Of a stretch of DNA of 64,000 nucleotides, positions 4,043-64,000 are shown piece after piece (position 1 is the first letter of the stretch; the number at the start of each line of letters is the position of its first letter). Under the pieces are notes generated by a model. That model saw only the letters and a list, made by a program, of their open reading frames with translations. It was not told the origin of the DNA and did no database searches. The stretch lies in the sequence record OR896822.1; one strand, given 5' to 3'. The position numbers were made by a program, and so were the translations under genes. This DNA is from Salmonella phage vB_SenS-3.

Positions 4043-4071
4043 TTGCTTTTTGCTGTAAACCTTGTTATAAT
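4043..4071 (+). promoter_or_regulatory. sigma70-type promoter (TTGCTT N17 TATAAT)
   Basis: Second tandem promoter upstream of phoH. Confidence 0.5.
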
Positions 4072-4147
4072 ATATTTGTAAGTTGATAAACAAGATCTCT
4101 TTGTTGATCCTCTGTTAGAAGCGAAGTACACTATAGGAGTGTTATTT

Positions 4148-4900: not shown

Positions 4901-4901
4901 T

Positions 4902-5144: not shown

Positions 5145-5267
5145 GACAGACGAGCCTGGGTATGAAAATATCCGGGCTCTTTTTATCTGTAAAATTGTAC
5201 TTGCAAAATGACCCAAAACAAAGTAGAATATTTCCTAAATCCTGATAACTACAAAAAGGAAAGCCAA

Positions 5268-7598: not shown

Positions 7599-7705
7599 TA
7601 AAAACAAGGAGATCTTCGGGTCTCCTTTTTTCTTTGAAATTTTACTTGCTAATCTCTACCAGATTTGCTATAATATTCCTGAAATAGTGAGAAAGAGGAA
7701 AATCA

Positions 7706-8851: not shown

Positions 8852-9381
8852 TGATAGCAGCAATCTATGCAACTGGGCCGAATGGGGAGTTCGGCCTCAA
8901 TGGTAAGCTCCCCTGGGGTTCTTTCAAAGAAGAACTAGATATCTTCTATGCTACATTGGATTCTCTGGCACCTGACAATATTATTGTAGGAGCAGGAACT
9001 TGGTTAGCATTCCCTGAGACTCTGCAAAAAAGAATACTAGGAGATTCTGACCTATTTATTTATGCAAATAGACCACTACCGAACTCTATAAGATCAGCTA
9101 CACGCATAAGCAACATTGGATACCGTCTGCCTGATTTTCTCAAGGAAGAGGTAACTGTAGTATTAGGGGGAGCAACTCTGCTTCTTGAAATGTATGTCAA
9201 AAATCATCTAGATATGGCGTATATCTCTACTGTTACTTCAGCCACACCATTATCTGCTGATGTACATCTGCATCATCATATTACTTTAACTAATTCAATG
9301 GCAACTAGAATGGACTATGTGGCAGGACAGAATGCAGATAAAACGCTTTCATTCTTACAAGAATTGGTGATATTTAAATGA
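8851..9381 (+). CDS. dihydrofolate reductase-like protein
   Basis: 176 aa; N-terminal IAAIYATG...LPW resembles DHFR; sits between nrdB and thyA. Confidence 0.65.
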
Positions 9382-10232
9382 AGCAATATATTGAAACTGG
9401 AAAACGTATTCTTGAAGAGGGTGTATGGGTAACGAATCCTAGAACAGGGGTTCGTTGCCTAACCATTATTGATGCAGACTTTACCTTTAACGTAGGAGCA
9501 GGAGAACTGCCGCTAGTAACTACTCGTAAAGCATTTGCTAAACAAGCAATAATGGAAATGATCGGATATCTACGTGGGTACGACTCAGCAGCACAATTCC
9601 GCGCTATTGGTGTTAATACATGGAATGCTAATGCAAATGAAAATATTGCCTGGCTAGGTAATCCATTCCGTAAAGGCGAGGATGATATGGGACGAGTCTA
9701 TGGTGTTCAAGGACGTCATTGGACTAATTCTGATGGTATGGTATTTGATCAGTTAGCCAAAGTCTACCATAATTTGAAAAGAGGGATTGACGATCGTGGA
9801 GAAATTTTAACTTTTTGGAACCCTGGGGAATTTCGTAAAGGATGCCTACGTCCGTGTATGCATACCCATCAATTCTCTATTTTAGGTGATACACTATACC
9901 TAAACTCTTTCCAGAGGTCTAATGATTTCTTGCTGGGCCAAGTATTTAATATGGTGCAATGCTATGCACTTCTAGCTATTATGGCACAGATTACAGGTCT
10001 TAAGCCAGGTATTGCTCGTCAAAAGATTATTAATCTTCATATCTATGAAGATCAGTATAATGTTCTGATGGAGCACAAGCAATTCGATCGTGAACCTTTT
10101 GCACCTCCTACTTTAGAAATCAATCCAAATATTAGAACTTTGGATGATGTATTAACGTGGGTAAGTAAGGATGATTTTACTGTTCGTGGCTATGAACACC
10201 ATCCTGCTATTGCATATCCATTTACGGTGTAA
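9378..10232 (+). CDS. thyA: thymidylate synthase
   Basis: 284 aa; active-site [10 protein letters not shown] matches the ThyA PCH..QF signature. Confidence 0.85.
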
Positions 10233-17607: not shown

Positions 17608-18237
17608 TAATAGTGGGGTGCCGAAACCACTTATGTAACAACACTGCCGTCCTAGTATAATAGGTATTATTAGGGCTTCACCGCCTGAAGATGTGGGTTC
17701 GAGTCCCACGGTCGGAAAGAGTTGGATAACTGGTGCTTCTAATGGCGAAGCAATCGCAGGCAGTTGCGCACTGCCAAAACCACGCGGTAGTTGGTTCCAG
17801 GCTAACCAACCACTCTTGAAAAGTATATACTACGGTTTTGCTTGTTCAGGAAGCTTCGCATCGAAAATCGGAGGTGCGATTTTATCAGACCGCGTGGAGG
17901 ACGTCTCTCCGTTAAGTGACGAAAAGTGGGACGATTCAGGTAGAGCTGGATATGGAACACCTATACATATGCGGAGTGCGCACAAAGCATATTGCGGTGG
18001 TACTAAACGAAATTAGGAGTCATGACCTGCACAAGTTTAGTATGTCATAACCGATGTACATTCAGTACAAAAACCACTGAAGCTAAGATAGATAGTCACC
18101 TTGACTTAAACTGGAAGATATTGTCTGACGGAAGGGCTGCAGAGCTTAATCTGAGGGGGCTGACCCTACCTACCGTCGGGTATCTTTAAGAGTTCTTACG
18201 AGAACTCTTAAAGATACCTAAACATTAAGGAATACTG
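17608..18237 (+). ncRNA. candidate structured RNA (GC-rich, tRNA-like T-arm at 5' end, several hairpins)
   Basis: No RBS or promoter-proximal start; GTGGGTTCGAGTCCCAC T-arm at 17693-17709 without matching acceptor stem; local GC rise; many stems. Confidence 0.3.
18179..18218 (+). other. perfect 18-bp stem / 4-nt loop hairpin
   Basis: GGTATCTTTAAGAGTTCT / AGAACTCTTAAAGATACC inverted repeat just upstream of the ORF at 18238. Confidence 0.7.
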
Positions 18238-48419: not shown

Positions 48420-49301
48420 ATGTATAACTTTAAAGATAAACTAAGACAAAATGCTGGTAAAGGAAAAGCTAAAGAGAACAATAATATTCCTAGTGCTAAA
48501 ATATTACCTTTTCCTGAACTAACACAGGAAGAAAAAGATAAACTAGCATTTATGTTCGATGCACTTATAGGATTAAGTGGACGCCTATATTCCACTCTTA
48601 GTATTAATGAGAAACGTCTAGTAGAGATGTTCTGCAAACGTTATCAAGTTACTTCAAAAGGTAACTCTTATAAAGAAGGTGAAAAAGCATTCACAGTCTT
48701 AAAAATCAGTGCGTATGCACATCGTTTCTTAGTTTATGGATTACAGATGGAATACTTCACCCTCCCACCATTTAAATCATTCCATATCTTTGAGGATGAA
48801 CGAATGAATATTGATGATCTTTATGGAGATACGTACAAATATTCAGGAAGCCCATTCCATGATGCATTAAGAAGCTACCCTACTAGTTACCTACCAGTTA
48901 GAGCATCACAAGGCAAAGCTAGCATCTTTGCTGTATACTCAGGATCTAAAGCATCTGATCTAGAAACTTATATATTTAAAGAGCGTAAATCTGCAATTCC
49001 AGATGAAGCATTATATAATAATCCACTTCTTCCAGAAGAACCGGAGAAAATTGATGTAACTCCCCCAACCCCATCCGAATCTCAATATTTAGTCTATGAA
49101 AAACAAGTTAAGTTGTCTCTAGACATTGGGTTGGTTACACCGCTTGCTGCAGCATTCATAAATAAGTATCTAGAAATTCCTGACGAGTTCCATGCACGTT
49201 ATAACACGAATATTCAGATCACAGATGAACTAGTTGCATTAGCAAAAGATACACCTACTGACACTGAGGCGTATCAAAAAGCATACCAAGAGTTACTGTA
49301 A
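48420..49301 (+). CDS. hypothetical protein
   Basis: 293-aa ORF, last + strand early-type gene before repeat region. Confidence 0.5.
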   Translation: MYNFKDKLRQNAGKGKAKENNNIPSAKILPFPELTQEEKDKLAFMFDALIGLSGRLYSTLSINEKRLVEMFCKRYQVTSKGNSYKEGEKAFTVLKISAYAHRFLVYGLQMEYFTLPPFKSFHIFEDERMNIDDLYGDTYKYSGSPFHDALRSYPTSYLPVRASQGKASIFAVYSGSKASDLETYIFKERKSAIPDEALYNNPLLPEEPEKIDVTPPTPSESQYLVYEKQVKLSLDIGLVTPLAAAFINKYLEIPDEFHARYNTNIQITDELVALAKDTPTDTEAYQKAYQELL

Positions 49302-49310
49302 GATCCTGCA

Positions 49311-49340
49311 AGTCTCGGTGCACAATACCTGTACCGAGAC
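49311..49340 (+). terminator. hairpin after last early gene
   Basis: GTCTCGGT...ACCGAGAC 8-bp stem. Confidence 0.45.
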
Positions 49341-49829
49341 TCAAATACAAACTCTCGTTGACAGATAACTAAATGTATGTTATCATAACTCTATGAGTTA
49401 ATAAAATTAACCATTTAGAGTTGCCACACAGAAGGTGTGGTGGTTCAGGAATCTTAAATTACTGACTTGTAGCGTAGGTTACGGAGCGACAGGACAAGTC
49501 AACAGGTAATTTAATAAAGATTACTAGAAACATCACGAGACCTTCTGGCGGGGGCAAAGCTCTATATGAGAACCCTGGGGGATCTTATACTTATATAAAA
49601 ACTAATACTGTTGAATAGATAAATTAACGTTCAAGATGATACACTCGGTTGCCGCTCATCTGCTAGGATGGCACAACACTTTCTTCTAGACTCCTAAGTT
49701 TCTAGGAGAACTCTCGTCAACTCAGGCGGTTTTCATTGTTCCTAGAAACTCTAGCAATAGGCGGTTAATACAGGGCGGTTATAGGGAGGGCGGTTATTTC
49801 TAGGAGTCATTTTTTGAAAACACATTTCT

Positions 49830-50445
49830 GGAGATTGCTATCGGATTTGCACATTATGTTTCTAGAAATTTATGGTCGGATTTGCACAATTGCCTAAGTT
49901 TTTAGGAACATATAATCTCCCGAAAATAGCAGCATTATTTCGGGCCGAAGGCCCATGATTGCCTGAGTTTTTAGAGCCACAGGAATTTTCACTTGTCAAG
50001 CTATTTTGCCCCATTTTGCTAATAAAATTTCGCTTTATCTCCCCCAATCTCAATTCTAGCCAAAACATCCCGCATTATCCCCAAAAACGCAGCAAACCGG
50101 TGCTAAAGCACCATCACCGCTGCTCCTTCCGTAGTTACTCCCAAAATCTCATCGGATTCGCACTTCTCCCCAAACCCACACAATCACACACCCTCCAATC
50201 GAAGTCACAAAAATCTTGTCGGATTCGCACACCTTAACACTTGTCGGTTTTGCACATATTCTAGTAAATCCAGCTGGATTGCATCGCAGTTGCGGATTGC
50301 TAGAGTTTTTAGGAAAATTCATTGTCGGATTCGCACACTATAAAAATATTTGCCATCGGATTTGCACACTACCAAAAATTGTCGGATTCGCACATGCACG
50401 CTGGCACGTAATCCGTGGGGGCAAATGTCGGATTTGCACAAAAGC
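49830..50445. repeat. iteron array: about 9-10 copies of TCGGATT(C/T)GCACA plus TTTCTAGGAG-like and GGCGGTTA repeats
   Basis: Copies near 49843, 49876, 50146, 50220, 50245, 50326, 50353, 50379, 50428; motif resembles a degenerate DnaA box (ATTTGCACA). Confidence 0.8.
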
Positions 50446-50464
50446 GCAGGGCAAATAGAAAATG

Positions 50465-50640
50465 CCCTGCCTGCCGAAATGCGAATGATAATGAGATTGA
50501 TTCGCATTTGAGAAGTTGAATGCGAATGATAATGATTCGCGTTTAGAAAGGGGAATGAGAATGGTTATCCTTTACAGAGTTGAATGCGAATGAGTTGCGT
50601 AATGAGAATGATTCGCATTTAGAAAGGGAAGTGAGAAACA
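50465..50640. repeat. cluster of GAATGCGAATGA / ATTCGCATT inverted and direct repeats
   Basis: At least four TGAATGCGAATGA-like units alternating with ATTCGCATTT/ATTCGCGTTT. Confidence 0.75.
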
Positions 50641-50652
50641 CTATTATTTAAG

Positions 50653-50661
50653 TTATCCACA
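50653..50661 (+). promoter_or_regulatory. consensus DnaA box TTATCCACA
   Basis: Exact 9-mer; TTATCAACA variants follow at 50715-50740. Confidence 0.5.
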
Positions 50662-50742
50662 GGTTTATTAACAGCACGATCTGACTTGACAAAATCCTAG
50701 TGATTTTGAGGCGTTATCAACAGACTTATCAACAGGTTATTC

Positions 50743-50762
50743 TACTGTATATTTATACAGTA
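50743..50762. repeat. 20-bp perfect palindrome TACTGTATATTTATACAGTA (core also at 54516)
   Basis: Self-complementary; CTGTATATTTATACAG core recurs at 54516-54531. Confidence 0.8.
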
Positions 50763-50792
50763 TTACTGCGTAGTGAATAACTCTAATATAGC

Positions 50793-50822
50793 TCTAAAAC
50801 GCTCTGTAACTCATTCTAAGCG
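50793..50822 (+). repeat. 30-bp direct repeat copy A (TCTAAAACGCTCTGTAACTCATTCTAAGCG)
   Basis: 29/30 identical to 54942-54971, same orientation. Confidence 0.8.
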
Positions 50823-50907
50823 ATTTAATTTTGGAGGAGGTATTTTAATAGGGGGAATTTGAGGAAGGCCAGAAAAAGCGGGGCCAGATAGTTGCACCCC
50901 GTTATTA

Positions 50908-51102
50908 TTAGTCTGGTAGTCGATGTGTGATCTTTTCGCTTTCGCCGTAGGAGTCTACCAAATGTTGATAGTAACCATCGTTATCATAAATCACTTTATC
51001 ATAATCGCCACGCTCCACCGCTTGCCGATTTTCCAGCGTATCAGGCACAAAGAAAGTATCAACGGTAACAGTAGTTTTAGTTACAACAATTTTATCACTC
51101 AT
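50908..51102 (-). CDS. hypothetical protein
   Basis: 64-aa ORF, minus-strand block. Confidence 0.3.
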   Translation of the reverse strand: MSDKIVVTKTTVTVDTFFVPDTLENRQAVERGDYDKVIYDNDGYYQHLVDSYGESEKITHRLPD

Positions 51103-51232
51103 AACGCCATCGCTCCTAGAATGAGAATGATTATCAATATCATTGTAAAGCCATTACCAAATCGTAAACGCTGGGAATGTTTCCCAGCGGTATTATTAGA
51201 TTTATGGCTTTGTGTTTTTCGCCACCAGCTAT

Positions 51233-51445
51233 TCACGGTTTTAAATTCTCTATAGTTAATTTTGCGCGAATAGTGATTCCATATAATTCGCCTCCCTTGT
51301 TTCTTACATCAGGTAGCCAGTCCCACAATTCAGGGTATCCGCTTAAAATTCCTAGCGATGCAAGATTAGCAATAAAACCGGCTATAGTAACCGCTTCCAG
51401 TGAAATAGTTACACGATTATTAATAACTAAAGTAAACTTTTTCAT
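51233..51445 (-). CDS. hypothetical protein
   Basis: 70-aa ORF, minus-strand block. Confidence 0.35.
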   Translation of the reverse strand: MKKFTLVINNRVTISLEAVTIAGFIANLASLGILSGYPELWDWLPDVRNKGGELYGITIRAKLTIENLKP

Positions 51446-51786
51446 TGCGCCACCTTTCGAAACGCTGTTTCGATACTTTCAGCGGTTGATTGAATATACG
51501 CGCCTTTCATAATCAGGCGCTCTGTACACACTTTGCGGAAAATGTCAATAAATTCATTTTCATTTTCCGCTATTAACGCTTCCCCCATAACCTGAACGTC
51601 ACAAGACCCAAAAGTTAAAAATTGAAATGCTAGTTCACGGGCGACAACGGCAGAAATTTTATAATGTGCTTTGCCCTCATAGATATTAACCACGCCTTTA
51701 TAAACTGGTGAAAGCTGATTTAAATAGTTTGCTAATAATGCCGGACGGCAATTAGTAATAAAGCGATTGCCCTCATAAATTACCAT
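51442..51786 (-). CDS. hypothetical protein
   Basis: 114-aa ORF, ATGA-type overlap with downstream ORF. Confidence 0.4.
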   Translation of the reverse strand: MVIYEGNRFITNCRPALLANYLNQLSPVYKGVVNIYEGKAHYKISAVVARELAFQFLTFGSCDVQVMGEALIAENENEFIDIFRKVCTERLIMKGAYIQSTAESIETAFRKVAQ

Positions 51787-51909
51787 CTGCCAACCTCCCT
51801 AGCAAATAGCCAAAACAAATCGAATAAACGCCTAACAGTGCAGGATCACTTTTAAAGTAGGTAGCAATAAAGCCACCAGCAGCACCGAGCAAAATAGAAA
51901 ATAAAGTTT

Positions 51910-52122
51910 TCATAATACCCCACGAAACGCAGCGTAAAAGGTGGCAAAGTGTTTAACCGTTTCGGCTACCAAATTGCCGCGCTTGTCAAATTTCTTTTCT
52001 GTAACACGGAAAGCGTTTTTGTTGCGTGCTACATATTCGATTTTACAATCTGGACGCTCGAACGTGTTAACATCCACCAGCTTAAAACCTTTGGAACGGG
52101 CAAGGGAAACATTCTTTAACAT
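51910..52122 (-). CDS. hypothetical protein
   Basis: 70-aa ORF. Confidence 0.35.
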   Translation of the reverse strand: MLKNVSLARSKGFKLVDVNTFERPDCKIEYVARNKNAFRVTEKKFDKRGNLVAETVKHFATFYAAFRGVL

Positions 52123-52124
52123 TT

Positions 52125-52274
52125 TTATTCCCCTTTACCAGTCATACAGCCTAACAAGTAAGAAAACCCCGCGATACCTGCTCCGATAATAACCACGTGA
52201 ACGCCGAAAGCTATTACAAACAGCGATAAAATAGCGCCCAAGATACTAGCCAGAATAGATCGAAAAATAACCAT
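52125..52274 (-). CDS. hypothetical small membrane protein
   Basis: 49-codon ORF with AGGAGG RBS; hydrophobic; below ORF-track cutoff. Confidence 0.3.
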   Translation of the reverse strand: MVIFRSILASILGAILSLFVIAFGVHVVIIGAGIAGFSYLLGCMTGKGE

Positions 52275-52381
52275 TTTAACGCCTCCTAGAAATTAGGGAA
52301 AATTTTCAGTCCACCGTTTCGGTGTAAAGGCATTATAACAAAAAAGGCCGCCGATTAGGGCGACCTTTACAAAACTTTACA

Positions 52382-52876
52382 TTAGACTATTTCTAGTGCT
52401 TCCACGCCGAAACAGCGTTTTAATTCTTTCTGTAAAACGGCATATTCATCCCAACGGGAATTATCAGGAATATAAACAAGCTGTTTTAGTCGATTTGCAT
52501 ATAATAACGCCTTGTTACCAATTATTTCCGCGCCACCGTGTTTAATAATTAGTTTCATAACGGTATTAATAGGATCGCCGCCATTTACATAAGTACCGGA
52601 CTTACTCAATTGATAATGATAAAGACTCGCATATACATTATCATTTTCAATCCATTCCCCTGTTTCTTCATCTTCTTCCCCATCGCTACCGAAACGAGAA
52701 GCATTATCATATGCGTGTTCGTTTGCGAAAGCGTCCAGATCACAGCCAGCGGGAACAAAATGTTCCTCCGTCCAGCCTTCCCCACAATAGCCAGTGTGAC
52801 AATCAACTAAAACGATCATATCGTGTTTAGCTTCATTCACACTTTCTAGAGAAAAGCCATATTTTTCTTCTGACAT
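52382..52876 (-). CDS. hypothetical acidic protein
   Basis: 164 aa with Asp/Glu-rich stretch SDGEEDEETGEWIEND. Confidence 0.45.
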   Translation of the reverse strand: MSEEKYGFSLESVNEAKHDMIVLVDCHTGYCGEGWTEEHFVPAGCDLDAFANEHAYDNASRFGSDGEEDEETGEWIENDNVYASLYHYQLSKSGTYVNGGDPINTVMKLIIKHGGAEIIGNKALLYANRLKQLVYIPDNSRWDEYAVLQKELKRCFGVEALEIV

Positions 52877-52889
52877 AACTAGACTCCTA

Positions 52890-53198
52890 TTAATTAGCAG
52901 GGAAATAAAGAGAATTTGCTACACTGTAAAATCCTTTATTTAAGAAAATTACGTCATCACGGACTATTTCATCCATTCCATAATCCAGCAAAGTTTCGTC
53001 TACAAAAATACATAGCCAGCCATAACCACGATCAAAGAAAGCATGATAATTATTAGCGCTTTCTACATGTTCCCATAAAAAGGGACGGCCTTGTTTTTCC
53101 CATATAGGAATATTGCTTTGATCGTCCGAATAATTAACATGGGGGCTATTCGGCATTTTTTCGGCTAATTGCGTCAACATGATTTGATTCAGTTGCAT
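52890..53198 (-). CDS. hypothetical protein
   Basis: 102-aa ORF. Confidence 0.45.
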   Translation of the reverse strand: MQLNQIMLTQLAEKMPNSPHVNYSDDQSNIPIWEKQGRPFLWEHVESANNYHAFFDRGYGWLCIFVDETLLDYGMDEIVRDDVIFLNKGFYSVANSLYFPAN

Positions 53199-53264
53199 AA
53201 TAAGTAGTCTCCTAACAATTAACAGGGAAATAGTAAAGCGGGAAATAATCCCCGCTAGTAATTA

Positions 53265-54266
53265 TTACTCTGTTTCGGCGCTTTGGGTAAAGGTAGAAAT
53301 GTCAATGCCTTTTACCATTTCATCGATCATTTCAGCAATATTGAAACTCTGTACCATTTCCAGCATTGCCGCTTCCATTGCCGCGCCTGCTACCGCTTTC
53401 GCTTTCGCATTAGTCGGGGCGTACTGGTCAACCGCTACGCTTAACAGGTTAGCGATCACTACGCGACCGATCGGCGTATCGATATAACCTTTAATCATAA
53501 ACGGCGCTTTTTTCGCCGCTACTTTTGTGATTTGAGTCAGTGCAATTTTACCCGCTTCCAATTTAGCAGCGTTAACAACGGCGGATTTATTAGCGGCAAC
53601 GATAGAAGATACTTTAGACATAATATTTCCTTTATTTTCAGTAGTTTGCGCATTTGCGCTTGAAGTTTGAGATTGTACAGCCTGTTTTGTTACATTGTCA
53701 AGCGATTTTAATGTAAATCCAGCGTTTGCAACGTTTGATTCATTCCCATACTCTAAATAATCGTTAGGAATCAACATGTTACCGCTAGCGCGTTCAAAAC
53801 ACAATACGCCAGTTGTTTCGATTGCGTCACTATCCGCACCTTTATAACTGGATGATAATTCACGCCAGATACTATTTAATAACGATCCGACACTATCCAG
53901 TCTGATATTATTTACTTTTGTTGCTGTTACCTGCTCTTTTTCTTGCACGTTATATAATCGCGCAATGTAACCACTATGAGACTCACTATAACCAACAATG
54001 ATAAAATCAATATCAGTTCCCCGACTATTACGGAAAATGTGATAATCACGGTTGAAAATTACTAGCGCCCTTGTCTGGTCTAGTAATAGCGTGAAATCAT
54101 CGACTGAATAATGAGTATCATTATTATCTAAAATTTCATCGTGAATCTTTTCAACCATTGCCGCCGTATGTTGTACGCTTGCCACACTACTACCATCTAG
54201 CAGGTTGCGCAAACTACCCTTAATAATAGTGGCGTTTGCTGGTACTGCAATTCTTACAGTAGACAT
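53265..54266 (-). CDS. hypothetical protein
   Basis: 333-aa ORF, first gene of minus-strand block, Ala/Lys-rich C-terminal half. Confidence 0.5.
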   Translation of the reverse strand: MSTVRIAVPANATIIKGSLRNLLDGSSVASVQHTAAMVEKIHDEILDNNDTHYSVDDFTLLLDQTRALVIFNRDYHIFRNSRGTDIDFIIVGYSESHSGYIARLYNVQEKEQVTATKVNNIRLDSVGSLLNSIWRELSSSYKGADSDAIETTGVLCFERASGNMLIPNDYLEYGNESNVANAGFTLKSLDNVTKQAVQSQTSSANAQTTENKGNIMSKVSSIVAANKSAVVNAAKLEAGKIALTQITKVAAKKAPFMIKGYIDTPIGRVVIANLLSVAVDQYAPTNAKAKAVAGAAMEAAMLEMVQSFNIAEMIDEMVKGIDISTFTQSAETE

Positions 54267-54515
54267 TTCTTTGTCTCCCTCGTTAATCGGTGAGTGAATG
54301 ATATAGATAATTGTTCGCTAGGGGCAAGAAAAAAGAAAAGGTTTTTTATTCCTTGCCTACTGCCCGTTTTTATGATAATCGCGCGTTTTCTATTTCTAGC
54401 TCTCTGTAAGCGTACACAAGGCTTTATTATAATAAGGGTAGCAGTGAGAAAACGCCGTGTAGCGCGTTCTAGGCCGCTTAAATTTGATTGCGGTTGTTAC
54501 TGCTACCATTCTACC

Positions 54516-54531
54516 CTGTATATTTATACAG
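54516..54531. repeat. palindrome core CTGTATATTTATACAG (second copy)
   Basis: Identical core to 50745-50760. Confidence 0.8.
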
Positions 54532-54553
54532 TAGGATAACCTGTATATAAGTC

Positions 54554-54611
54554 TGTGGATAAGTCACCAAAACGTCGCCTATTGCGTCAAGTTATTTTGT
54601 GCTGTGGATAA
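54554..54611 (-). promoter_or_regulatory. two DnaA boxes in minus orientation (TGTGGATAA at 54554 and 54603)
   Basis: Reverse complements of TTATCCACA; a third AGTGGATAA at 54888. Confidence 0.5.
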
Positions 54612-54941
54612 CTTTGTGCATAACCTAAATGATAGTGGTTCTCACTTAGCCCGATAGTTTCTCATAGTTATTATTTCTCATTAATTTATGTGTATATTAT
54701 ATATTATGAAATAGTTAGTTGGCTAATAGATTTTTAGGGTATTAATAGTCTGCTAACTGTTTCGGCTGTTACAATCCACCAGCGTGATTATCGTCCTAGC
54801 GATTATTAGTCTGCTAATGCTCTGATGCACGTCCAGACTTATTTGTCAATGAAAAATAACAGCAGAAAATACTTTTTTGAAAAATCAAGTGGATAACTCA
54901 TTAAATTTCATTTTTGCTTTTTGTATAAGTTATTAACAGGG

Positions 54942-54971
54942 TCTAAAACGCTCTGTAACGCATTCTAAGCG
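54942..54971 (+). repeat. 30-bp direct repeat copy B (TCTAAAACGCTCTGTAACGCATTCTAAGCG)
   Basis: 29/30 identical to 50793-50822. Confidence 0.8.
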
Positions 54972-55316
54972 CCTCAAAGGAAAAGATAGGCAATCATAAG
55001 GGGTACACCGAGAAAACCTCACCACGAGGATTTTAGATTTTGTCAAGTACCCTAGAGCAGATATAAATGAAAAAATTACTTGCTAAAATGGTTGTTTTGG
55101 TGTTATTCGCGCGCCCGTTTCATTAAATTTAATGCGCCGCTGGACGTTTGCGAGTAGTGGTTTTCTTTACGTTTCTTTACAAAAATACGCTTGCGCCCTT
55201 CTCGGTATTCTCCTATTATTTATCACGTAGGGCGGCAATGACGAACTACACGGCGGGGATAACAGCGATTGACAGTCTGTTTGACCTTTCAAAACCCTGC
55301 CATGCTCTTTAAAAAT

Positions 55317-55342
55317 TAGGGAACATCTTAAAGCCTATCGGC
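55317..55342. repeat. 26-bp inverted repeat, left arm
   Basis: TAGGGAACATCTTAAAGCCTATCGGC; partner at 55593-55618 (25/26 complementary). Confidence 0.75.
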
Positions 55343-55374
55343 GGTAAACTTAGATATTATAAGGAATCGACGAT

Positions 55375-55584
55375 ATGAAACAAACGCTTTTGATCACTGG
55401 CAAGCCTATCAAGTCGCTTGATAGCAGAACAAAAAATTTGTTGACAGTAGCGCAACGATCTGTAAAATACAGATTCAAGCAATACAAGAAAGGCAAGCAA
55501 CAAGGGCTGGAAATGGTGTGGCGTAATATAATGATTGATTTATATAACTCCCATCAAATCGAAAAAAGTTTAAAAAACGATTGA
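55375..55584 (+). CDS. hypothetical small basic protein enclosed by 26-bp inverted repeats
   Basis: 69-aa ORF, GGAATCGACGAT then ATG; flanked by IR arms. Confidence 0.3.
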   Translation: MKQTLLITGKPIKSLDSRTKNLLTVAQRSVKYRFKQYKKGKQQGLEMVWRNIMIDLYNSHQIEKSLKND

Positions 55585-55592
55585 CACGCTAG

Positions 55593-55618
55593 CCGATAGG
55601 TTTTAAGATGTTCCCTAG
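55593..55618. repeat. 26-bp inverted repeat, right arm
   Basis: GCCGATAGGTTTTAAGATGTTCCCTA. Confidence 0.75.
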
Positions 55619-55815
55619 TTTTTAAATAGTGATAACTTGATAAAATTTGACGGTCGGCACTTACCATAATGTGCCTCGCCCCCTAACTGGGATATAGCGG
55701 CCCGCGCGGAGTTCTTTAAATTTATTATATTGGCGAGCGGATTATAATCTAATAGCGTTTCAAAGTATCGAGGCGCTATTGTGGAATAATCCCACAATAA
55801 ACCGGAGTATTAAAA

Positions 55816-56067
55816 ATGCAAAACGTTATCACCGCACCGAAAGTAGGTCAATCCGTTTTTATTCCTTTCGTTACTAAAACGGATGAATTAACTGGAAAAG
55901 CTGAACGTATTAAAGGTGCGGCGCTTGATCCCTTTGATAAAATTGAAGCGGTATACGCGGAAACGGAACGCAGTAACAACGGCAAGCCAATTTATAACGT
56001 TCGCGTTAAATCTGGCGACGTTGTAAAAATCATTCAGAAAGATGATAAATGGCAAGCTATTAGCTAA
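55816..56067 (+). CDS. hypothetical protein
   Basis: 83-aa ORF with GGAG RBS. Confidence 0.4.
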   Translation: MQNVITAPKVGQSVFIPFVTKTDELTGKAERIKGAALDPFDKIEAVYAETERSNNGKPIYNVRVKSGDVVKIIQKDDKWQAIS

Positions 56068-56166
56068 TTAGTGTTACTTTTATATTCCCCTGAAATATGG
56101 GGAATATATGGATTAACATTAGTTAATCATAATCCCTTAATTAATAATTGAATGGAGTATTAAATT

Positions 56167-56583
56167 ATGTCTAACGTTAAAACCGAAAAAACCGCAAAAT
56201 TCGCTTGGAACGAAGAAAACACTGAAAAAGCTGTTTCTATGTATTCTGAAATGGTCGCTAAAAGCGGAATTGAATTTGCTAACAGTGACGGCCTGAAAGA
56301 AATTGCCGCCGCCGTTGGTGCTGCTAGTCCGGTGTCTGTACGTTCTAAACTGACAAGCGCAAAAGCCTATCAGAAAAGCGATAAACCTCGCAAAGTTGGC
56401 GGCGGTAGCTCAATTCGTAAAGCTCACTATGTGCGTGTTATTGCAAAACATGCCATCGACGCTGGCGTTATTAAAGACGCTGATGACTTGGCAAGCCTTG
56501 AAAGTGCTAAACTGGAAACACTGGACGCCGTAGCGCAATTATTAGGCGTAGCGGAGGAAGTAAAACAGGCCGCAGGTGAATAA
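56167..56583 (+). CDS. hypothetical protein
   Basis: 138-aa ORF, Ala-rich; hairpin AGCGGGG AATATT CCCCGCT follows. Confidence 0.45.
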   Translation: MSNVKTEKTAKFAWNEENTEKAVSMYSEMVAKSGIEFANSDGLKEIAAAVGAASPVSVRSKLTSAKAYQKSDKPRKVGGGSSIRKAHYVRVIAKHAIDAGVIKDADDLASLESAKLETLDAVAQLLGVAEEVKQAAGE

Positions 56584-56633
56584 ATTTTAATTAGCGGGGA
56601 ATATTCCCCGCTAACCCTTAAAGGAGAATAATC

Positions 56634-56861
56634 TTGATCTTTTATCCTAGCGAAGCGTTTATTTTAGGTTTATTTATTATTGCCGCTATATTTATATTTA
56701 ATTACGGCAAATATATAATTTCTATTATCGGCATTAATTCAGCTTATGCCGCTGATATGTTTAAACGTCAAGCTAATAAACAAAAATATCTGGCGATTAT
56801 ATTTTTAACGCTGGCTATTAGTTGCGGTTTTAGTTCTAGTCTTATGCCAATTCTAGAATAA
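56634..56861 (+). CDS. hypothetical membrane protein
   Basis: TTG start after AGGAG RBS; two TM helices. Confidence 0.3.
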   Translation: MIFYPSEAFILGLFIIAAIFIFNYGKYIISIIGINSAYAADMFKRQANKQKYLAIIFLTLAISCGFSSSLMPILE

Positions 56862-56969
56862 TATTGCAAATTATAACGCCTTTTAAATTGTCCTCACTTC
56901 AGGCAAGGCGTTATATTTGGCAATATTGCCAGTATTAATATTTATCCCTTTATAGGAGTTGATTTAGTT

Positions 56970-58634
56970 ATGAATATTTCCGCAGAAAAACAAGCTCAAA
57001 TTTTGAAAATGGCCGCTGATTTCAATTTCTACGGTAAGCGTTTACGCGCTACTAAGCTGGAAGTTTGCGACGATATTTCAAAAGCTGTTTATGATACGCC
57101 GAAACATTCAACCGCAATTTGTGACTGGCTGGAAGCAAACAAGCCAGCGAAACCGAAAGCGGCAAAAGCTGAAAAGGCGATTAAAAATGATGATCGCCCC
57201 GAGGCGGCGGGAATTGTTTCTAGCACCGTTGAGCAATGGGAAGTTAAATCCGGTCGCCGTTTTATTCTAACGTCGATTCAGAATAATACTTTCCCGCATA
57301 AAAACTTTTTAGCAAGTCTGGAAAAATTCGCTGAATATTGCGGCGCTGAATTACTTGTTAGCAAATTCATTTACAACAAAAACGGATTTCAGAACGGGGA
57401 AGGGGCAAACGGTATTAAATACGATCCCGCATTTGATAAATATGTTTGTGATAAAAACGTATTTTTAAATAACCGCCGCTTTGCCTTCATGGCTGAAATT
57501 AACGTTTTACCAACGGCAGATTATCCGCTTTCAGGATTCGCAGAAACCGCCACGGCTTTAAATATCGAAGGTCTGGCAATTGGTCACGCAAAAATTACCG
57601 CTGAAAGTGTTCCCGCGCTTAAAGGTGAAGTAGTGCGCCGTATGTATTCAACCGGAACGGCTACGCTTAAAAACTACATTCAGCAGAAAGCAGGACAAAA
57701 GGCCGAGGCTTTACATAACTACGGCGCTTTGCTGGTAGAATTTGACGACGGCGGAGAATTTTTCGTGCGCCAGCTTGAAACAATGGACGAAAGCGGAATG
57801 TTCTATGATCTGAATATTTGCGCCACTCCTAGCGGTTGCAAAGAAATTACCGGACACATTTTAGGCTTACAATATGGCGATATTCACGCCGAAAAATTAG
57901 ATGATGAATGCGCCGTCGCTTCATGGGCTAGTGAAAATTCATTGCTTGATATTCTTAAACCGAAATATCAGTTTATTCATGATGTGCATGATTTTACATC
58001 GCGTAACCATCACAACCGCGCTAGTGGTGTATTCCTTGCTAAACAGTACGCCGCAGGACGTGATAAAGTTATTGATGATCTCATTGATACCGGTCGCGTG
58101 TTGGAATCTATGGAACGTGAATTTAGTCAAACAATCATTGTGGAATCCAACCATGATTTAGCTCTTTCACGCTGGCTTGATGATCGTAACGCAAACATTA
58201 AGGACGATCCCGCAAACGCCGAGCTATATCACAGCCTAAACGCTGCGATTTACGCCGCAATTGCAAAACAAGATGATACCTTTAACGTATTGGATTACGC
58301 GCTTAGAAACGTTGCAGGTTGCGAATTTAACGCTATTTTCCTGACTACTGACCAGTCATTTAAAATCGCTGGCATTGAATGTGGCGTACATGGTCACAAC
58401 GGCATTAATGGCAGTCGGGGCAATCCTAAACAGTTTAAAAAGTTGGGACGCCTTAACACTGGTCACACTCACACGGCTAGCATATACGGCGGCGTTTATA
58501 CCGCTGGCGTGGCGGGGTCGCTTGATATGGGCTATAACGTGGGCGCGTCAAGCTGGACGCAAACGCATTTAATTACCTATGCAAACGGGCAACGTACTTT
58601 GATTGATTTCAAAAACGGTAAATTCTTTGCATAA
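56970..58634 (+). CDS. A1: pre-early A1-like protein (metallophosphoesterase domain)
   Basis: 554 aa; GDIHAE, HDVHD, GHNG, GHTH metallophosphatase motifs in C-terminal half; size matches T5 A1 as recalled. Confidence 0.65.
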   Translation: MNISAEKQAQILKMAADFNFYGKRLRATKLEVCDDISKAVYDTPKHSTAICDWLEANKPAKPKAAKAEKAIKNDDRPEAAGIVSSTVEQWEVKSGRRFILTSIQNNTFPHKNFLASLEKFAEYCGAELLVSKFIYNKNGFQNGEGANGIKYDPAFDKYVCDKNVFLNNRRFAFMAEINVLPTADYPLSGFAETATALNIEGLAIGHAKITAESVPALKGEVVRRMYSTGTATLKNYIQQKAGQKAEALHNYGALLVEFDDGGEFFVRQLETMDESGMFYDLNICATPSGCKEITGHILGLQYGDIHAEKLDDECAVASWASENSLLDILKPKYQFIHDVHDFTSRNHHNRASGVFLAKQYAAGRDKVIDDLIDTGRVLESMEREFSQTIIVESNHDLALSRWLDDRNANIKDDPANAELYHSLNAAIYAAIAKQDDTFNVLDYALRNVAGCEFNAIFLTTDQSFKIAGIECGVHGHNGINGSRGNPKQFKKLGRLNTGHTHTASIYGGVYTAGVAGSLDMGYNVGASSWTQTHLITYANGQRTLIDFKNGKFFA

Positions 58635-58686
58635 TTAAATTTAATCGGCGGTTGAAATATACCGCCATTAATAAAAGGTTTATTAA

Positions 58687-58965
58687 ATGGCTAGTAAAAT
58701 TAATATATCTATCCCTGATAGCAATTGTTTAGAAGATATTGCATGGTCTGAAATGTCTTTTGATAGTTGCGTTTATTTAGTTACCCGTGGAATGTACGCG
58801 GGAATGTACGCCGTATGGGATAGTAATATTGGCGAAAATATGATCTTTTTCGGAAAAGATTCTATTCAGGTAATGACAGGCGATTACCTTAATCAAGAAA
58901 GGAAAGACGGCGACGAAACATATTTTCGTAAAACTGATTTATCTTTAAATGTATTTTTTCAATAA
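58687..58965 (+). CDS. hypothetical protein
   Basis: 92-aa ORF. Confidence 0.4.
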   Translation: MASKINISIPDSNCLEDIAWSEMSFDSCVYLVTRGMYAGMYAVWDSNIGENMIFFGKDSIQVMTGDYLNQERKDGDETYFRKTDLSLNVFFQ

Positions 58966-58997
58966 ATCCCGTAATTAAATAATCTGGAGTCATAAAC

Positions 58998-59390
58998 ATG
59001 AAAAACCAAAACATTCCTTTTGATCGTGCTACTTCTTCCATCGTTCTAGTTTATTCTAATGGCGAACGTTATCACGTCGAAGCGGGGCAAGTTAATTTCG
59101 ATTTGCTGAATTATAACGACGCTTTGCAGGTTACTACCTTTGCTTATGATACCGGCAAAGTGGCAAGCCATACGAAAGCAAAAGGCGTTTACGCTGATAC
59201 TTTGACAGTGCAAACAATCATTATTGATGCGCTTAAATCCGGTCTAGCGTTTGCGGTTGTTAAGCCGTGTCCGGTCTGCAATCCCGAAGCTAGCGCAATG
59301 GTTTATACTTGCGCGGGTATCCGTTCTAGCGTACATGGTGAAGATCTTTCCTTTATCGGTGACGCGCTAGCGTATGGCCTCACTAACTAA
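58998..59390 (+). CDS. hypothetical protein (possible A2-like pre-early protein)
   Basis: 130 aa adjacent to A1-like gene; assignment by position and size only. Confidence 0.35.
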   Translation: MKNQNIPFDRATSSIVLVYSNGERYHVEAGQVNFDLLNYNDALQVTTFAYDTGKVASHTKAKGVYADTLTVQTIIIDALKSGLAFAVVKPCPVCNPEASAMVYTCAGIRSSVHGEDLSFIGDALAYGLTN

Positions 59391-59477
59391 TAGTTAATTG
59401 AACATTGCCAGCTAATCTAATATAATTAGCTGGCAAGATTGAATTAACCTAAATCCCTTAAATGGAGAATGTAACAA

Positions 59478-60212
59478 ATGAATCAAGTCAACATGAATAT
59501 TACCCGCACTTTCTCGCATATTTCCCGCGTTATGATTTGGGATTTAGACGGGACAATCATTAATTCATTCCATCGTGTAGCGCCTTGCTTTGATGATAAC
59601 GGGAATTTAGATTTAAATAAGTATTCCCGCGAAGCCTGCAAACATGAATTAATTATGCAGGATTCCTTATTACCATTGGTTGAATATATGCGCCAATGTA
59701 TGAATGATCCCAATACCTTAAACCTTATTTGTACCGCTCGCTTAATGGGTAAATCTGATTATTATTTCTTGCGTAAACAAAGTCTAAGAGGACGCGGAAA
59801 TAGTAATATTCGCGTATTTTCCCGCGATACTTTGCATAAATACTTTGAAGCGGATAAGGTTAGCGAAATATACCACAGCAAAGATGCTGTATATAAATCT
59901 TATTACTTTGAACTGTTTAAACAGCTATATCCTAACGCTGATTTTACGATGATTGATGATCATAAAGGTGTATTATCGGCGGCGGCAAGTGCTGGATTTA
60001 AAACGCTGGACGCTCAAGCCGTTAATGATATCCTATCAATCGGCGTAACATTGATCGGTGAAACCTTTATTGATGAATCACTTGATGATGATAACGATTA
60101 TCAATTCCTAGCCGAACGTTTAAAAATGTGTTGGGAAGGTATGACCGAGGAAGAACGAGCGGAATATAGTACCACACCGCAACAATTCATTGATAAATTA
60201 AAAGTCGCGTAA
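59478..60212 (+). CDS. dmp: 5'-deoxyribonucleotidase (HAD-like), dmp-like
   Basis: 244 aa; N-terminal WDLDGT HAD motif I; size matches T5 dmp as recalled. Confidence 0.65.
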   Translation: MNQVNMNITRTFSHISRVMIWDLDGTIINSFHRVAPCFDDNGNLDLNKYSREACKHELIMQDSLLPLVEYMRQCMNDPNTLNLICTARLMGKSDYYFLRKQSLRGRGNSNIRVFSRDTLHKYFEADKVSEIYHSKDAVYKSYYFELFKQLYPNADFTMIDDHKGVLSAAASAGFKTLDAQAVNDILSIGVTLIGETFIDESLDDDNDYQFLAERLKMCWEGMTEEERAEYSTTPQQFIDKLKVA

Positions 60213-60375
60213 TAATTAAAAATAAAATAGTCACACTGTGTTATCATCACATAGTGTGACTATTAGCTTGCTAAGTACCGGGGCGGTAATGAGACTCATT
60301 CTCATCTAGGGAACCTCTGGGCACACCTTCATGTGTAATCTTATGAAATTTCGAGAATTGGTAATTAGCGCTAAC

Positions 60376-60621
60376 TTAGGAAGAACACCGGTCTACTGGC
60401 TTGTCTCCTGATTCTGACATACGAAATCTCCTCCGCGACGCCCGAGATCCATCAGACCATTCTCGCTCAAACTCCGCACGTTTCTCCGCAAACCTCCGCT
60501 CTCTTTCCGAAAGCTCCCGCGATACTCCCGCAATATATTCACGATGCTTATTAATCGCCCCGAGTGTTCCGAAGATTCCCGCAAGTACCCCGATAATGAA
60601 GATAGCTACAAAGCTAAACAT
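60376..60621 (-). CDS. hypothetical membrane protein
   Basis: 81 aa, N-terminal TM, Arg/Glu-rich tail. Confidence 0.35.
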   Translation of the reverse strand: MFSFVAIFIIGVLAGIFGTLGAINKHREYIAGVSRELSERERRFAEKRAEFEREWSDGSRASRRRFRMSESGDKPVDRCSS

Positions 60622-60808
60622 CTAATTCCCTCTCAAGTTGGTGAATACGTGCCCGATCATTACGTTGGGAGTCCAGTAACTTATCCATATTAATGTTTAG
60701 TTGGGTGACTTTATCCTCTAGCCGCTGTATACGATTACGATGTGACGTCATATATCCAACAATCCAGACAAGCCATACTACAAGTGTAATAAGTCCTAGC
60801 CAATCCAT
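60614..60808 (-). CDS. hypothetical membrane protein
   Basis: 64 aa, N-terminal TM then coiled coil. Confidence 0.35.
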   Translation of the reverse strand: MDWLGLITLVVWLVWIVGYMTSHRNRIQRLEDKVTQLNINMDKLLDSQRNDRARIHQLERELDV

Positions 60809-61376
60809 TATTTATCTCCCCGCAGCTTACGTTCGATATGAGCTAAGTGGTTATCTAAAATGCACTGCCCGATAATTACCACAACTAGTAAAGCAATAAT
60901 TACTACTTCCATTATAACCACCCCGCCATAGCTGCTAACCAAAAGAGTACAAAGATAAAGAATAACACAGTCCCGAATCCGAAACTATTTATCCAACTTT
61001 CGTACACTTCCCCGCGTCTGTTCTTTCTTCTGTTGTCGCCTGACATCTCTTTGCTTCTCCTGTAAGTCCGGTATTTGGAATACCCTAGCAAATTGCACGA
61101 ACCATTATGACTGTCCCGATAAGATCCATTACTTCGTCGAAGCCGGATTCTTCTAGTAAGAAGGATGTTCCCATCACGTCTTCTATTGTATCTTCTATGA
61201 CGTCTTGAATGATTTCATCAATTGCATCATGTATTGCTTTTTAGTCCTGGGATCTATTTCAAAGTTAACAGGTTCCTGAAAGGACTTTTCTTCATCTTGC
61301 ATTGTGTTTGCTACCTGTACCTCATCCCAGAAATAAAAATTTTTGTTTACTTCGAGATCTTTTTACTTTATACTAA

Positions 61377-61643
61377 TTACAAGTGACCAGATTGTTCTAG
61401 TTTAAATTTGCAATCGCCATATTTGAGATCAAACTGTGACAGATCCCACCACCCAAACTTAGTGCGTAACTGAGTTTTAGGGAATCGATAGCCCACAGTA
61501 CGTGCTTCTCGAATATCTAAAGCATAGTGTTCTTCACCAACATGACCATAAGACTTCACGTATGCCTTACAGAACGGCTTAGGAGCTGGTACACAACCAG
61601 TCAACACTACTGCTGCAACTACGATAGCTAGTAACTTTTTCAT
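61377..61643 (-). CDS. lipoprotein, candidate lytic-conversion / receptor-blocking protein (Llp-like)
   Basis: Signal peptide with lipobox LTGC; divergent from and adjacent to the receptor-binding-like gene. Confidence 0.45.
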   Translation of the reverse strand: MKKLLAIVVAAVVLTGCVPAPKPFCKAYVKSYGHVGEEHYALDIREARTVGYRFPKTQLRTKFGWWDLSQFDLKYGDCKFKLEQSGHL

Positions 61644-61726
61644 AATCGTTCCTCTGTTTAATTTATAAATATATTATAGCAAAATAGAGGGATCTAAGCA
61701 AATACATTTTTAAAGAAGGAGATTGT

Positions 61727-63508
61727 ATGAGTTTTTTCGCAGGAAAATTTAGTGATGGTAAAACTGTATTATCTCTAAACGCTGCTAATGGTGGTGATGT
61801 AAATCAGCACTACTCTCCAAATACTAATAGTATCTTCCACTCAGATATGCCATTTGTCCTAGTTGATGGGACTTACGAGGCTGCTCTAGGTGATGCAGGT
61901 AATGGGTATTTTGTTACTCAGATGCCTTGGGATATTATAAACATTAAATCCAATGATCCTGGTAGAGTTATATTAACTGCTATTGAGATAAATGGTACTC
62001 ATAGGGGTTTCCTTAATGGTACACAATCTCAGGTTGGCCAGTTCTTATCATTCTTTGAAGACCAACCACGTGCTGGTGCTGAATTATCTGTAACATCTGC
62101 TTTTGCGATCGGTGATAGTTTAGCTCATGGTACCTATATCTATAATGGTGGTCTTGGCCATGAGGAATCTATTGCTCGGCAAGGTTCTGGAGGCAGTTTA
62201 CTACAGTCCTCTGGTTTCCAGATCTTTAGACCTGGTGGTGTTTCTGCTGGTGAAGCCATTGCCAGAGCCTGGAGTCTTATGGGTTTTCCAACTGGTGTCT
62301 CTACTGTTCCTTTAGATGGTGGTAACGCAGATTATTGGGAACCTAACTGGCAGGCGCCTGTTGGTTCTGCGGGTAGAGGCCATGATTGGTTTTATGTTTG
62401 TAGTTCTAATATTCGTGGCTTCGCAGGTAAAAAAGGCGTACTACCAGATAACGTAAACGTTCTTTACCAATCTCCTGCATATCCAGAAAAAATATATGTT
62501 TGTAGAGGTTCTACTTCTAATATGGCTGCTCAGTCCGCTAGAAAGGTATATGTACAGGACTGGTATAATGTTACGCCAACTAAGGTTATTTGGTATGTGC
62601 TAAATCTGCGCTATTCTAATGGTAGTATGGGAGTTTCTGGTAATCCATTTACCGGTTCAGATATCCTAATATCTCCATCTAACTTTACTATTAAAGGGGT
62701 TAGTTTACCAAATACAGGATATAAATTCATTAACCAGAATGCCTTTGGAAACTTAGGCTATCGCCCTGATATGGAGTATGTTGGTAATAATGCTGCGTAT
62801 ACCGGAGTTTTTGGTGATAATACTGCACGATGTGAATTTATCGGCTCTAGTAATGGTGGGTTGTGGTCGCCCGTTAACTACGGGGGTGCAGCTTCTCAAA
62901 TTAGCTTATATAAATTTGGTGTAGGTAAACAATGGTATGTAGATACTAATACCAACTCCATTGGTAATGAACATGGACCTGTGTGGAGTCCTAGTACTGT
63001 ACCACTCAGGTTATTCCCAGGCAACGTTGCAAGTACTTATGTAGGGGACGATATAACTCCATCCTACCCTGGTGCTGGTGACTTCTACACACCTTTGGCC
63101 ACAGTTTGGTTGGGATTACCGAATGCTCACTCTACTGTTATATTAACTACTGAAGTTATTATGGGTAATCTTAATACTGCTGGAATGCCTGTGCGTACTT
63201 ACGGCGGTAGCGCTTGGCAGGTACAAGGTAGACGTCAACAAAGTTATACAGCTGGTGATGGTGTATTCCATCAGATTCTTACTCTGCCACCTGGATATCT
63301 AGTACCTTATCACAGTACAACTTCCTATAGTTATACACAAACTTGGGCTAGTAGGCCTGATGAGTTTGCTTTCCGTAGGAACGGATATATTTATACTATT
63401 AAAAACCTTGGTAATGGCAACGTTGAGTTGGGTGTTATCATTCACGCTGCAGAAGCGGCAGCTGTTTTCTTGCCAAGACTACGTGTAACAGTTCAACGCC
63501 TAACCTAA
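61727..63508 (+). CDS. tail receptor-binding protein candidate (pb5/Oad-like)
   Basis: 593 aa, Gly/Asn/Thr/Ser-rich, no enzymatic motifs; adjacent divergent lipoprotein as in T5 llp-oad arrangement. Confidence 0.45.
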
Positions 63509-63528
63509 AGGAGGATATATGGCAAATG

Positions 63529-64000
63529 ATGTATTAGTTCCCGATCTCATGTCTCCCGAAGGCATGGATGTTATTGAAGCCTATTTACAGTGTGGTAGTG
63601 ATATTCCTGCCGCTGCTCGTAGTCTTGGGATGTCCGAGATTGCATTCCGTGATATAATGAATCGTGGGGAAGTTAAAAACTATCTCAACGATATCTTTAT
63701 GGAAAGTGGCTTCCGTAATCGTGACCGCTTATTCGGAGTTCTTGATGAAGTTATCAAGCGCAAGTTGGAAGAACTCGAAGAAACTGGCATGGGTTCTGAC
63801 CAGGATATCATGGATATTCTCTGGAAGGCGCACAAGATGAAAATGGAAGAAATGAAAATGATGGTAGAACTGGAGAAAGTGAAGGCAGCAGCCCGTACTC
63901 CGGCTAACCAGACTAACATTCAGAATAATATTATTGCTGGAAGTGGTGACGAAAACTATATGAATCTTATTACCGCTCTAGCAGGAGGAGGTAAGAGATA
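63529..64000 (+). CDS. hypothetical protein, partial (runs off window end)
   Basis: ATG 63529 after AGGAGG RBS; no stop before window end; helix-turn-helix-like N-terminus. Confidence 0.4.

Follow-up and report, generated by a model that had tools for sequence, protein, structure and literature searches.

Within the 64,000-nucleotide stretch of DNA analyzed here (the window), a single copy of a T5-type terminal repeat of ~10.3 kb very probably lies between the late and the early genes. The initial annotation had proposed that two repeat copies were merged in this sequence, and the proposal was borne out: the genome ends of related phages mapped inside the window, and the sequence continued with high identity past both boundaries, reaching llp, the receptor-binding protein (RBP) gene, and the terminase small subunit gene on the late side and, on the early side, the T5.018 homologue as well as the tRNA-rich early region.

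Judged by its sequence, the window belongs to a T5-like phage of Salmonella, in the genus Epseptimavirus, and is written in reverse-complement orientation relative to the T5 map. All BLAST matches to T5 were on the minus strand, confirming the reversed orientation that had been proposed for it. Read from right to left, the genes were the terminase small subunit, a pb5-like RBP, an Llp/Cor lipoprotein, small membrane ORFs, dmp, A1, A2, and a second pre-early operon, followed by the repeat-rich injection-stop region and the early genes. The order given in the initial annotation (RBP, lipoprotein, dmp, A1, small ORFs, repeats, early genes) therefore held, with identifications far above chance, but A2 and the divergent pre-early operon were not named in it, and three or four small membrane-protein ORFs separate the lipoprotein gene from the repeat. 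Gene identities were based on PHROGs and on direct comparison with T5 proteins; when the main proteins were compared with Pfam, DUF7566 was the sole match. The coordinates of all features are listed in the table.

Table. Features of the terminal-repeat region and its flanks (window coordinates; T5 names refer to homologues)
Feature	Position	Strand	Basis or remark
T5.018 homologue, 293 aa, first gene of the early region, beside the repeat	48420-49301	+	PHROG 8583, E = 1.8e-150; unique DNA outside the repeat
13-mer TCGGATTYGCACA ("DRD" repeats of the T5 injection-stop region), 9 copies	49841-50440	+	
Long direct terminal repeat, single copy of 10,349 bp, reverse complement of T5 map	49974-60322		Homologous record ends
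Homologue of the T5 major single-strand interruption (7.9% nick), between CCCTGCGC and TTTTGTGCAAATCC in T5 orientation	50443-50444	-	
Direct repeats AATG(A/C)GAATGAT..., "DRE"-type of the injection-stop region	50478-50650	+	
Arm of 132-nt inverted repeat (T5 IRD'-spacer-IRC')	50629-50760		76% complementary to partner
DnaA box TTATCCACA in this arm	50653-50661		
Divergent pre-early operon, transcribed toward the injection-stop region	50908-54266	-	PHROG and Pfam matches
T5.015-like ORF	51442-51786	-	
T5.014-like ORF	51910-52122	-	
DUF7566 ORF, 333 aa, of the minus-strand operon	53265-54266	-	
Other ORFs of the minus-strand operon	50908-51102, 51233-51445, 52382-52876, 52890-53198	-	
Partner arm (IRC-spacer-IRD), between both divergent pre-early operons	54516-54647		
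DnaA boxes in partner arm	54554 and 54603	-	
Pre-early operon, transcribed toward the genome end	55375-60212	+	PHROGs 1745, 1725, 415
Small ORFs of the plus-strand operon	55375-55584, 55816-56067, 56634-56861, 58687-58965, 58998-59390	+	
A2	56167-56583	+	PHROG 1725, E = 2e-50
A1	56970-58634	+	90% amino-acid identity to T5 A1; PHROG 1745, E = 3.5e-242
dmp	59478-60212	+	89% amino-acid identity to T5 Dmp
Conserved 24-nt motif CATAAGATTACACATGAAGGTGTG, adjoining the dmp-side terminus	60322-60345	-	Unique in window, 0 expected
Small membrane-protein ORFs, unique DNA between repeat and llp	60376-61091	-	Homologues of T5.159-162
Receptor-blocking lipoprotein, Llp/Cor type	61377-61643	-	PHROG 1119 "Cor superinfection exclusion protein", E = 1.3e-23
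Receptor-binding tail protein, pb5-like, 593 aa	61727-63508	+	PHROG 4815 "receptor binding tail protein", E = 1.1e-282
Terminase small subunit, truncated by window end	63519-64000	+	160-codon open frame

Termini annotated in T5, Stitch, Sepoy, Seafire, and vB_SenS-3 (MT004791) were placed on the window to the exact base; for Seafire and Sepoy, the record starts are PhageTerm-based. The dmp-side terminus fell at 60321–60323 from all five phages, with position 1 of Stitch, Seafire, and vB_SenS-3 at 60322, the start of Sepoy at 60321, and that of T5 at 60323. The early-side terminus fell at 49969–49974 from four phages: the T5 genome end (121750), the T5 left-repeat end (10219), Sepoy 10295, and the right end of vB_SenS-3 all corresponded to 49974, and the end of Stitch to 49969. 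The span of ~50.3–60.3 kb first suggested for the repeat was thus right in its length of ~10 kb and in its 60.3-kb end, but placed the early-side boundary ~0.3 kb too far in. Both boundaries were homologous to annotated genome ends of the relatives with exact motifs, the terminus-flanking motifs being identical to those of T5 in surrounding DNA that was merely 75–84% identical. The motif CATAAGATTACACATGAAGGTGTG was found exactly at the junction of late region and repeat in seven of the seven retrieved loci containing that junction, T5 included, and is probably a terminase recognition or cleavage context; a by-eye comparison of the two terminus contexts for a common sequence (a shared terminase site) gave none that was convincing. 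Contig breaks in public assemblies were dropped as boundary evidence, because identical terminal repeats form an unbranched cycle in the assembly graph and no breaks are expected. By homology, the left physical end of the phage DNA (in T5 orientation) would lie at 60322, ~110 nt beyond the dmp stop codon, and the right end at 49974, within the repeat-rich injection-stop region, with a predicted twofold read depth between them.

Records that contain both repeat copies showed how the single copy relates to them. In T5 (NC_005859), Stitch (KM236244), and vB_SenS-3 (MT004791), the right repeat begins next to the late-side genes oad and llp, and the left repeat ends next to the early genes. The alignments of the left and right ends of these genomes overlapped on 49974–60322 of the window and overhung this interval on opposite sides; for T5, both copies shared one window interval, the left-copy alignment extending into early DNA and the right-copy alignment into late DNA. 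When a second repeat copy or a long duplication was sought across the 64-kb window, only a family of early promoters of ~70–90 nt was found. Among the 40 best match rows, in which some phages occur twice (GenBank and RefSeq), 38 crossed both boundaries in one place, and the records of these rows are ~111–116 kb long, near the sum of the unique DNA and one repeat (for T5, 121,750 − 10,219 = 111,531). Because linear T5-type virion DNA cannot hold late region, repeat, and early region contiguously, only a single-copy, circularized or permuted representation is consistent with this arrangement.

The genes on both sides of the boundaries agreed with this placement, with llp and the RBP gene outside the late-side boundary and the T5.018 homologue outside the early-side boundary. 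On the early side, a BLAST match to T5 11889–9287 ran unbroken across the T5 left-repeat boundary. On the late side, the RBP region shared 96.9% DNA identity with a stretch of Stitch in which one gene carries the annotation “receptor-binding protein, T5 Pb5-like.” The gene for the terminase small subunit shared 85% DNA identity with T5.156 and is also annotated in rokbiter. The lipoprotein has a lipobox, LTG/C, in its N-terminus (MKKLLAIVVAAVVLTG/C), and the small membrane ORFs matched the annotation in T5, Stitch, and rokbiter.

Inside the repeat, dmp, A1, and A2 occurred in order, with the dmp stop codon 110 nt from the terminus homologue at 60322, and the minus-strand operon matched the annotation in rokbiter, Stitch, and T5. 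In a protein look-up, the exact A1 protein was found only in RA40, falkor, and SE18. The 13-mer TCGGATTYGCACA had nine matches compared with 0.08 expected, all on a single strand and none elsewhere in the window; two of the nine lay outside the repeat boundary at 49974. Each of the three copies of the consensus DnaA box TTATCCACA was located within the inverted-repeat arms. The DRD and DRE-type repeats, the paired inverted arms, and the DnaA boxes fit the published description (~131-nt arms) of the inverted-repeat and injection-stop architecture, which has been reported for 25 T5-like phages (Davison). The arm at 50629–50760, with its DnaA box, is a candidate for the injection stop signal, which the repeat would hold together with the first-step-transfer genes dmp, A1, and A2.

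We propose that the virion DNA is linear, with an identical sequence of ~10.3 kb at each end. Because both copies are identical, the assembler would have linked a single repeat to the late region on one side and to the early region on the other, and the outcome would be a circle-like contig with one repeat copy, an arbitrary opening point, and the orientation of the reverse complement of the T5 map. The same order, late region, repeat, and early region, is expected in a head-to-tail concatemer of a terminal-repeat phage, and the sequence might accordingly be a faithful replicative concatemer junction or circular intermediate, with one repeat shared between neighbors and no assembler artifact involved. 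Such concatemers are established for T7-type phages and are inferred for T5. Circularization through the repeats has been proposed by Davison. Concatemer and collapse look alike in the sequence alone; virion DNA is the normal template when phage genomes of this group are sequenced, and published accounts ascribe the layout to assembly, which makes a concatemer or circular intermediate highly unlikely. It is extremely improbable that the phage has no terminal repeat (for example, with circularly permuted DNA and headful packaging) and that the region is single-copy in the virion. Nothing positive favors this reading, although the duplication itself is deduced from relatives, whose terminal repeats have been confirmed by PhageTerm, depth, and PFGE; both terminus contexts match T5 to the base, the terminase small subunit is T5-like, and the complete pre-early gene set and injection-stop architecture make sense only at a genome end.

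A further reading accepts the collapsed repeat but places its inner end at 50444 instead of 49974, giving a repeat of ~9,879 bp. The PhageTerm repeat ends of Seafire (9592) and Seabear (8522) lie ~470 bp further in, at 50445 and 50444, respectively, and the rokbiter record was opened near there, at ~50487. However, position 50444 is the exact homologue of the T5 nick, since T5 9748/9749, annotated as “major DNA single-chain interruption,” corresponds to window 50444/50443. Nichols and Donelson, in 1977, reportedly gave the T5 nick consensus as Pu/GCGC. The coincidence of the Seafire and Seabear ends with the nick homologue suggests that PhageTerm probably located the nick in these two phages instead of the end of the genome; the program could take fragment ends made by the nick for a terminus. 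Furthermore, the ends of T5, Stitch, and the near-identical vB_SenS-3 all fall at 49969–49974, as does that of Sepoy (by PhageTerm), and Seafire also has a T5-type end motif, at 10056–10079. A shorter repeat in the window is therefore unlikely. That the inner end in some Epseptimaviruses, possibly including the phage of the window, is truly the 7.9% nick site at 50444 is similarly doubtful, and a shade more so, despite two independent PhageTerm calls that coincide at the homologue of this site; if it were true, the nicking site and the repeat boundary would be mechanistically linked, and PhageTerm would not have been misled.

Under the preferred reading, a single collapsed repeat copy at 49974–60322, the virion genome should exceed the source contig by ~10.3 kb, and the pre-early genes should be present in two copies per virion. 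The preferred coordinate start would be window position 60322 on the minus strand, and the permuted, reversed state of the contig matters for counts of restriction or defense targets and for gene-order comparison with T5. The single-copy layout is already well documented: it is usual in short-read assemblies, is described in several papers, and occurs in nearly all of the closest GenBank records. The result thus adds no new biology, and its value is one of bookkeeping.

In T5 (NC_005859), the left (1–10219) and right (111532–121750) repeats constitute the first-step-transfer region, and the record has both copies whereas the window has one. The two agree in the order dmp, two small ORFs, A1, small membrane ORF, and A2, followed by the divergent operon with DUF7566, the injection-stop repeats, and T5.018; oad, llp, and the small membrane ORFs likewise lie directly outside the right repeat, and both have identical terminus contexts. 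In contrast, the T5 HNH endonuclease gene hegG is missing from the window, two ORFs at 52385–53259 have no counterpart in T5, and at the DNA level the RBP and lipoprotein genes do not resemble T5 oad and llp (no BLAST match at 61097–63492). The Epseptimaviruses vB_SenS-3 (MT004791; 119,586 bp) and Stitch (KM236244; 123,475 bp) are linear records with a repeat at each end, and vB_SenS-3 shares 99.8% identity with the window in the early region adjoining the repeat. Their repeats are 9,455 and 9,982 bp long, respectively, compared with 10,349 bp in the window, a difference that arises from the variable middle part of the repeat. RA40 (OR242313; 111,611 bp) is single-copy like the window; the region is matched over its full length (100% coverage, 97.1% identity) within the interior of the RA40 record, and the A1 protein is identical. 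In Seafire (MK050846), for which the published description states that the contig holds only one repeat copy, and in many other T5-like records of ~111–116 kb, late region, repeat, and early region are contiguous, as in the window. These records differ from the window in their arbitrary opening point and strand, with those of Seafire, Sepoy, and Seabear opening at the dmp-side terminus.

The region at 49302–64000 appears to hold one copy of a T5-type terminal repeat, with late genes on one side and early genes on the other. The ends of T5 (NC_005859), Stitch (KM236244), the separately deposited vB_SenS-3 record (MT004791), Seafire, and Sepoy were placed on the window by BLAST and global alignments. 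T5 has annotated repeats at 1–10219 (left) and 111532–121750 (right), with dmp 123 nt from the left end, T5.018 directly beyond the left repeat, and oad, llp, and four small ORFs directly ahead of the right repeat. The other four genomes share this layout, the repeat being deposited twice in Stitch (9,982 bp each) and vB_SenS-3 (9,455 bp each) and once in Seafire and Sepoy, whose ends were assigned by PhageTerm. On the window, alignments from left-end loci extend into early DNA (T5, for instance, as far as 48352), those from right-end loci continue into llp, the receptor-binding protein gene, and the terminase gene (for example, Stitch to 64000), and the two sets overlap on 49974–60322. The overlap therefore delimits one repeat copy of 10,349 bp, and from homology we infer its physical ends and a twofold depth. 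The initial annotation had placed a collapsed repeat at about 50.3–60.3 kb; the 60.3-kb boundary stands, but the inner one was about 0.3 kb too far in.

Mapped repeat ends and features of the region (window coordinates)
Feature	Coordinates	Strand	Details
T5 ends	60323; 49974		position 1; left-repeat end 10219 and right end 121750
Stitch ends	60322; 49969		position 1; inner end
vB_SenS-3 (MT004791) ends	60322; 49974		position 1; right end
Seafire ends	60322; 50445		position 1; inner end
Sepoy ends	60321; 49974		position 1; 10295
T5.018 homologue	48420–49301	+	early side
DRD 13-mer TCGGATTYGCACA	49841–50440		nine copies
DRE-type repeats	50478–50650
Inverted pair	50629–50760; 54516–54647		132 nt
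Second pre-early operon	50908–54266		divergent; includes DUF7566 protein; absent from the initial annotation
A2	56167–56583	+	PHROG 1725
A1	56970–58634	+	PHROG 1745, E = 3.5e-242; 90% identity to T5 A1
dmp	59478–60212	+	89% identity to T5 Dmp
Small membrane ORFs	60376–61091		absent from the initial annotation
Cor/Llp-type lipoprotein	61377–61643	−	PHROG 1119; lipobox LTG/C
pb5-like receptor-binding protein	61727–63508	+	PHROG 4815, E = 1e-282
Terminase small subunit	63519–64000	+	truncated by window end

In a T5-type linear genome, late DNA meets the repeat at the right end alone and the repeat meets early DNA at the left end alone, so no piece of virion DNA can cross both junctions with a single repeat copy in between. 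The window does cross both in this way and is therefore a single-copy representation. The continuity through both mapped boundaries and the absence of a second copy of the repeat DNA from the 64-kb window support the collapsed repeat proposed earlier; the observation is thus confirmed and its interpretation supported, with the boundaries refined.

The 24-mer CATAAGATTACACATGAAGGTGTG (60322–60345, minus strand) terminates precisely at the dmp-side terminus; it occurs once in the window (0 expected) and is located where late DNA meets the repeat in each of the seven fetched loci that contain this junction, including T5. At the inner boundary, about 100 nt around CTGTGGCTC/TAAAAACTCAGGCAA (49940–50040) are near-identical in the window, T5, Stitch, and vB_SenS-3. 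Because these blocks are conserved within flanking DNA of just 75–84% identity to T5, their sequence argues that both boundary sites would function in this phage, and the two are candidate contexts for recognition or cleavage by the terminase. The inner block also holds TTGACA and a GGGCCTTCGGCCC hairpin just outside the repeat.

The PhageTerm repeat ends of Seafire (9592, mapping to 50445) and Seabear (8522, mapping to 50444) fall short of the T5-type end by about 470 bp, as they would if the repeat truly ended there in some lineages. This is improbable, since the same position, within one base (50443–50445, CCCTGCGC/TTTTG), is the homologue of the T5 annotated “major DNA single-chain interruption” (9748/9749, window 50444/50443), the major 7.9% single-strand nick, in conserved CCCTGCGC/TTTTGTGCAAATCC, and Seafire still carries the T5-type end motif farther out, at 10056–10079. 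We infer that both calls mark the conserved nick and not the genome end, so that the published lengths (Seafire, 9,592 bp; Seabear, 8,522 bp) probably understate the repeat by about 470 bp.

The repeat regions match the injection-stop architecture that is canonical for T5 and was reviewed by Davison (bioRxiv 10.1101/866236). Two of the nine DRD copies (49841–49888) lie beyond the inner boundary, on the early-gene side; the array therefore straddles the terminus, and copy number differs between the genome ends. All three consensus DnaA boxes fall inside the inverted-repeat arms. Farther into the early region, at least 14 plus-strand copies of an element of about 73–90 nt (AAAAATTCATTTGCT...TCTGTATAATATATTTATAAATTGATGAGAGG, then ATG; 14220–43880), each upstream of early genes, resemble the strong early promoters of T5, complete with conserved leader and ribosome-binding site. 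ARAGORN also reported a TCA-anticodon tRNA (“tRNA-SeC”, 17645–17718) that would decode UGA; this call may be an error within the phage tRNA cluster or may represent a tRNA of the suppressor type.

This cluster (28 plus-strand tRNA genes, 17.6–31.6 kb), the megablast matches of 49302–64000 to 554 phage records, mainly Salmonella and Escherichia T5-like phages, and near-identity to Salmonella phage RA40 and vB_SenS-3 assign the phage to Epseptimavirus (Demerecviridae). All T5 BLAST matches are minus-strand; relative to the conventional T5 map, the window is thus reverse-complemented, in agreement with the orientation read earlier from gene order. RA40, the top match, shares 97.1% identity (100% coverage) over the repeat-plus-receptor region, whereas over 25000–49999 identity reaches 99.9% (99.8% for vB_SenS-3, which drops to 86–92% in places on the repeat and late side); this contrast points to mosaic exchange of pre-early and receptor modules. 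RA40, falkor, and SE18 each encode an identical A1 protein and differ from the window in overall sequence.

The layout recurs widely: both boundaries are crossed in one place by 38 of the best 40 megablast rows, in which some phages are counted twice (GenBank and RefSeq records). The records behind these 38 rows are about 111–116 kb long, near the length of the unique DNA and a single repeat copy together (for T5, 121,750 − 10,219 = 111,531). The single-copy layout is of bookkeeping value only and is an already well-known result of assembling T5-like genomes: dmp, A1, and A2 are oddly placed in many GenBank T5-like records, which Davison attributed to the difficulty that assembly software has with large terminal repeats (bioRxiv 10.1101/866236).
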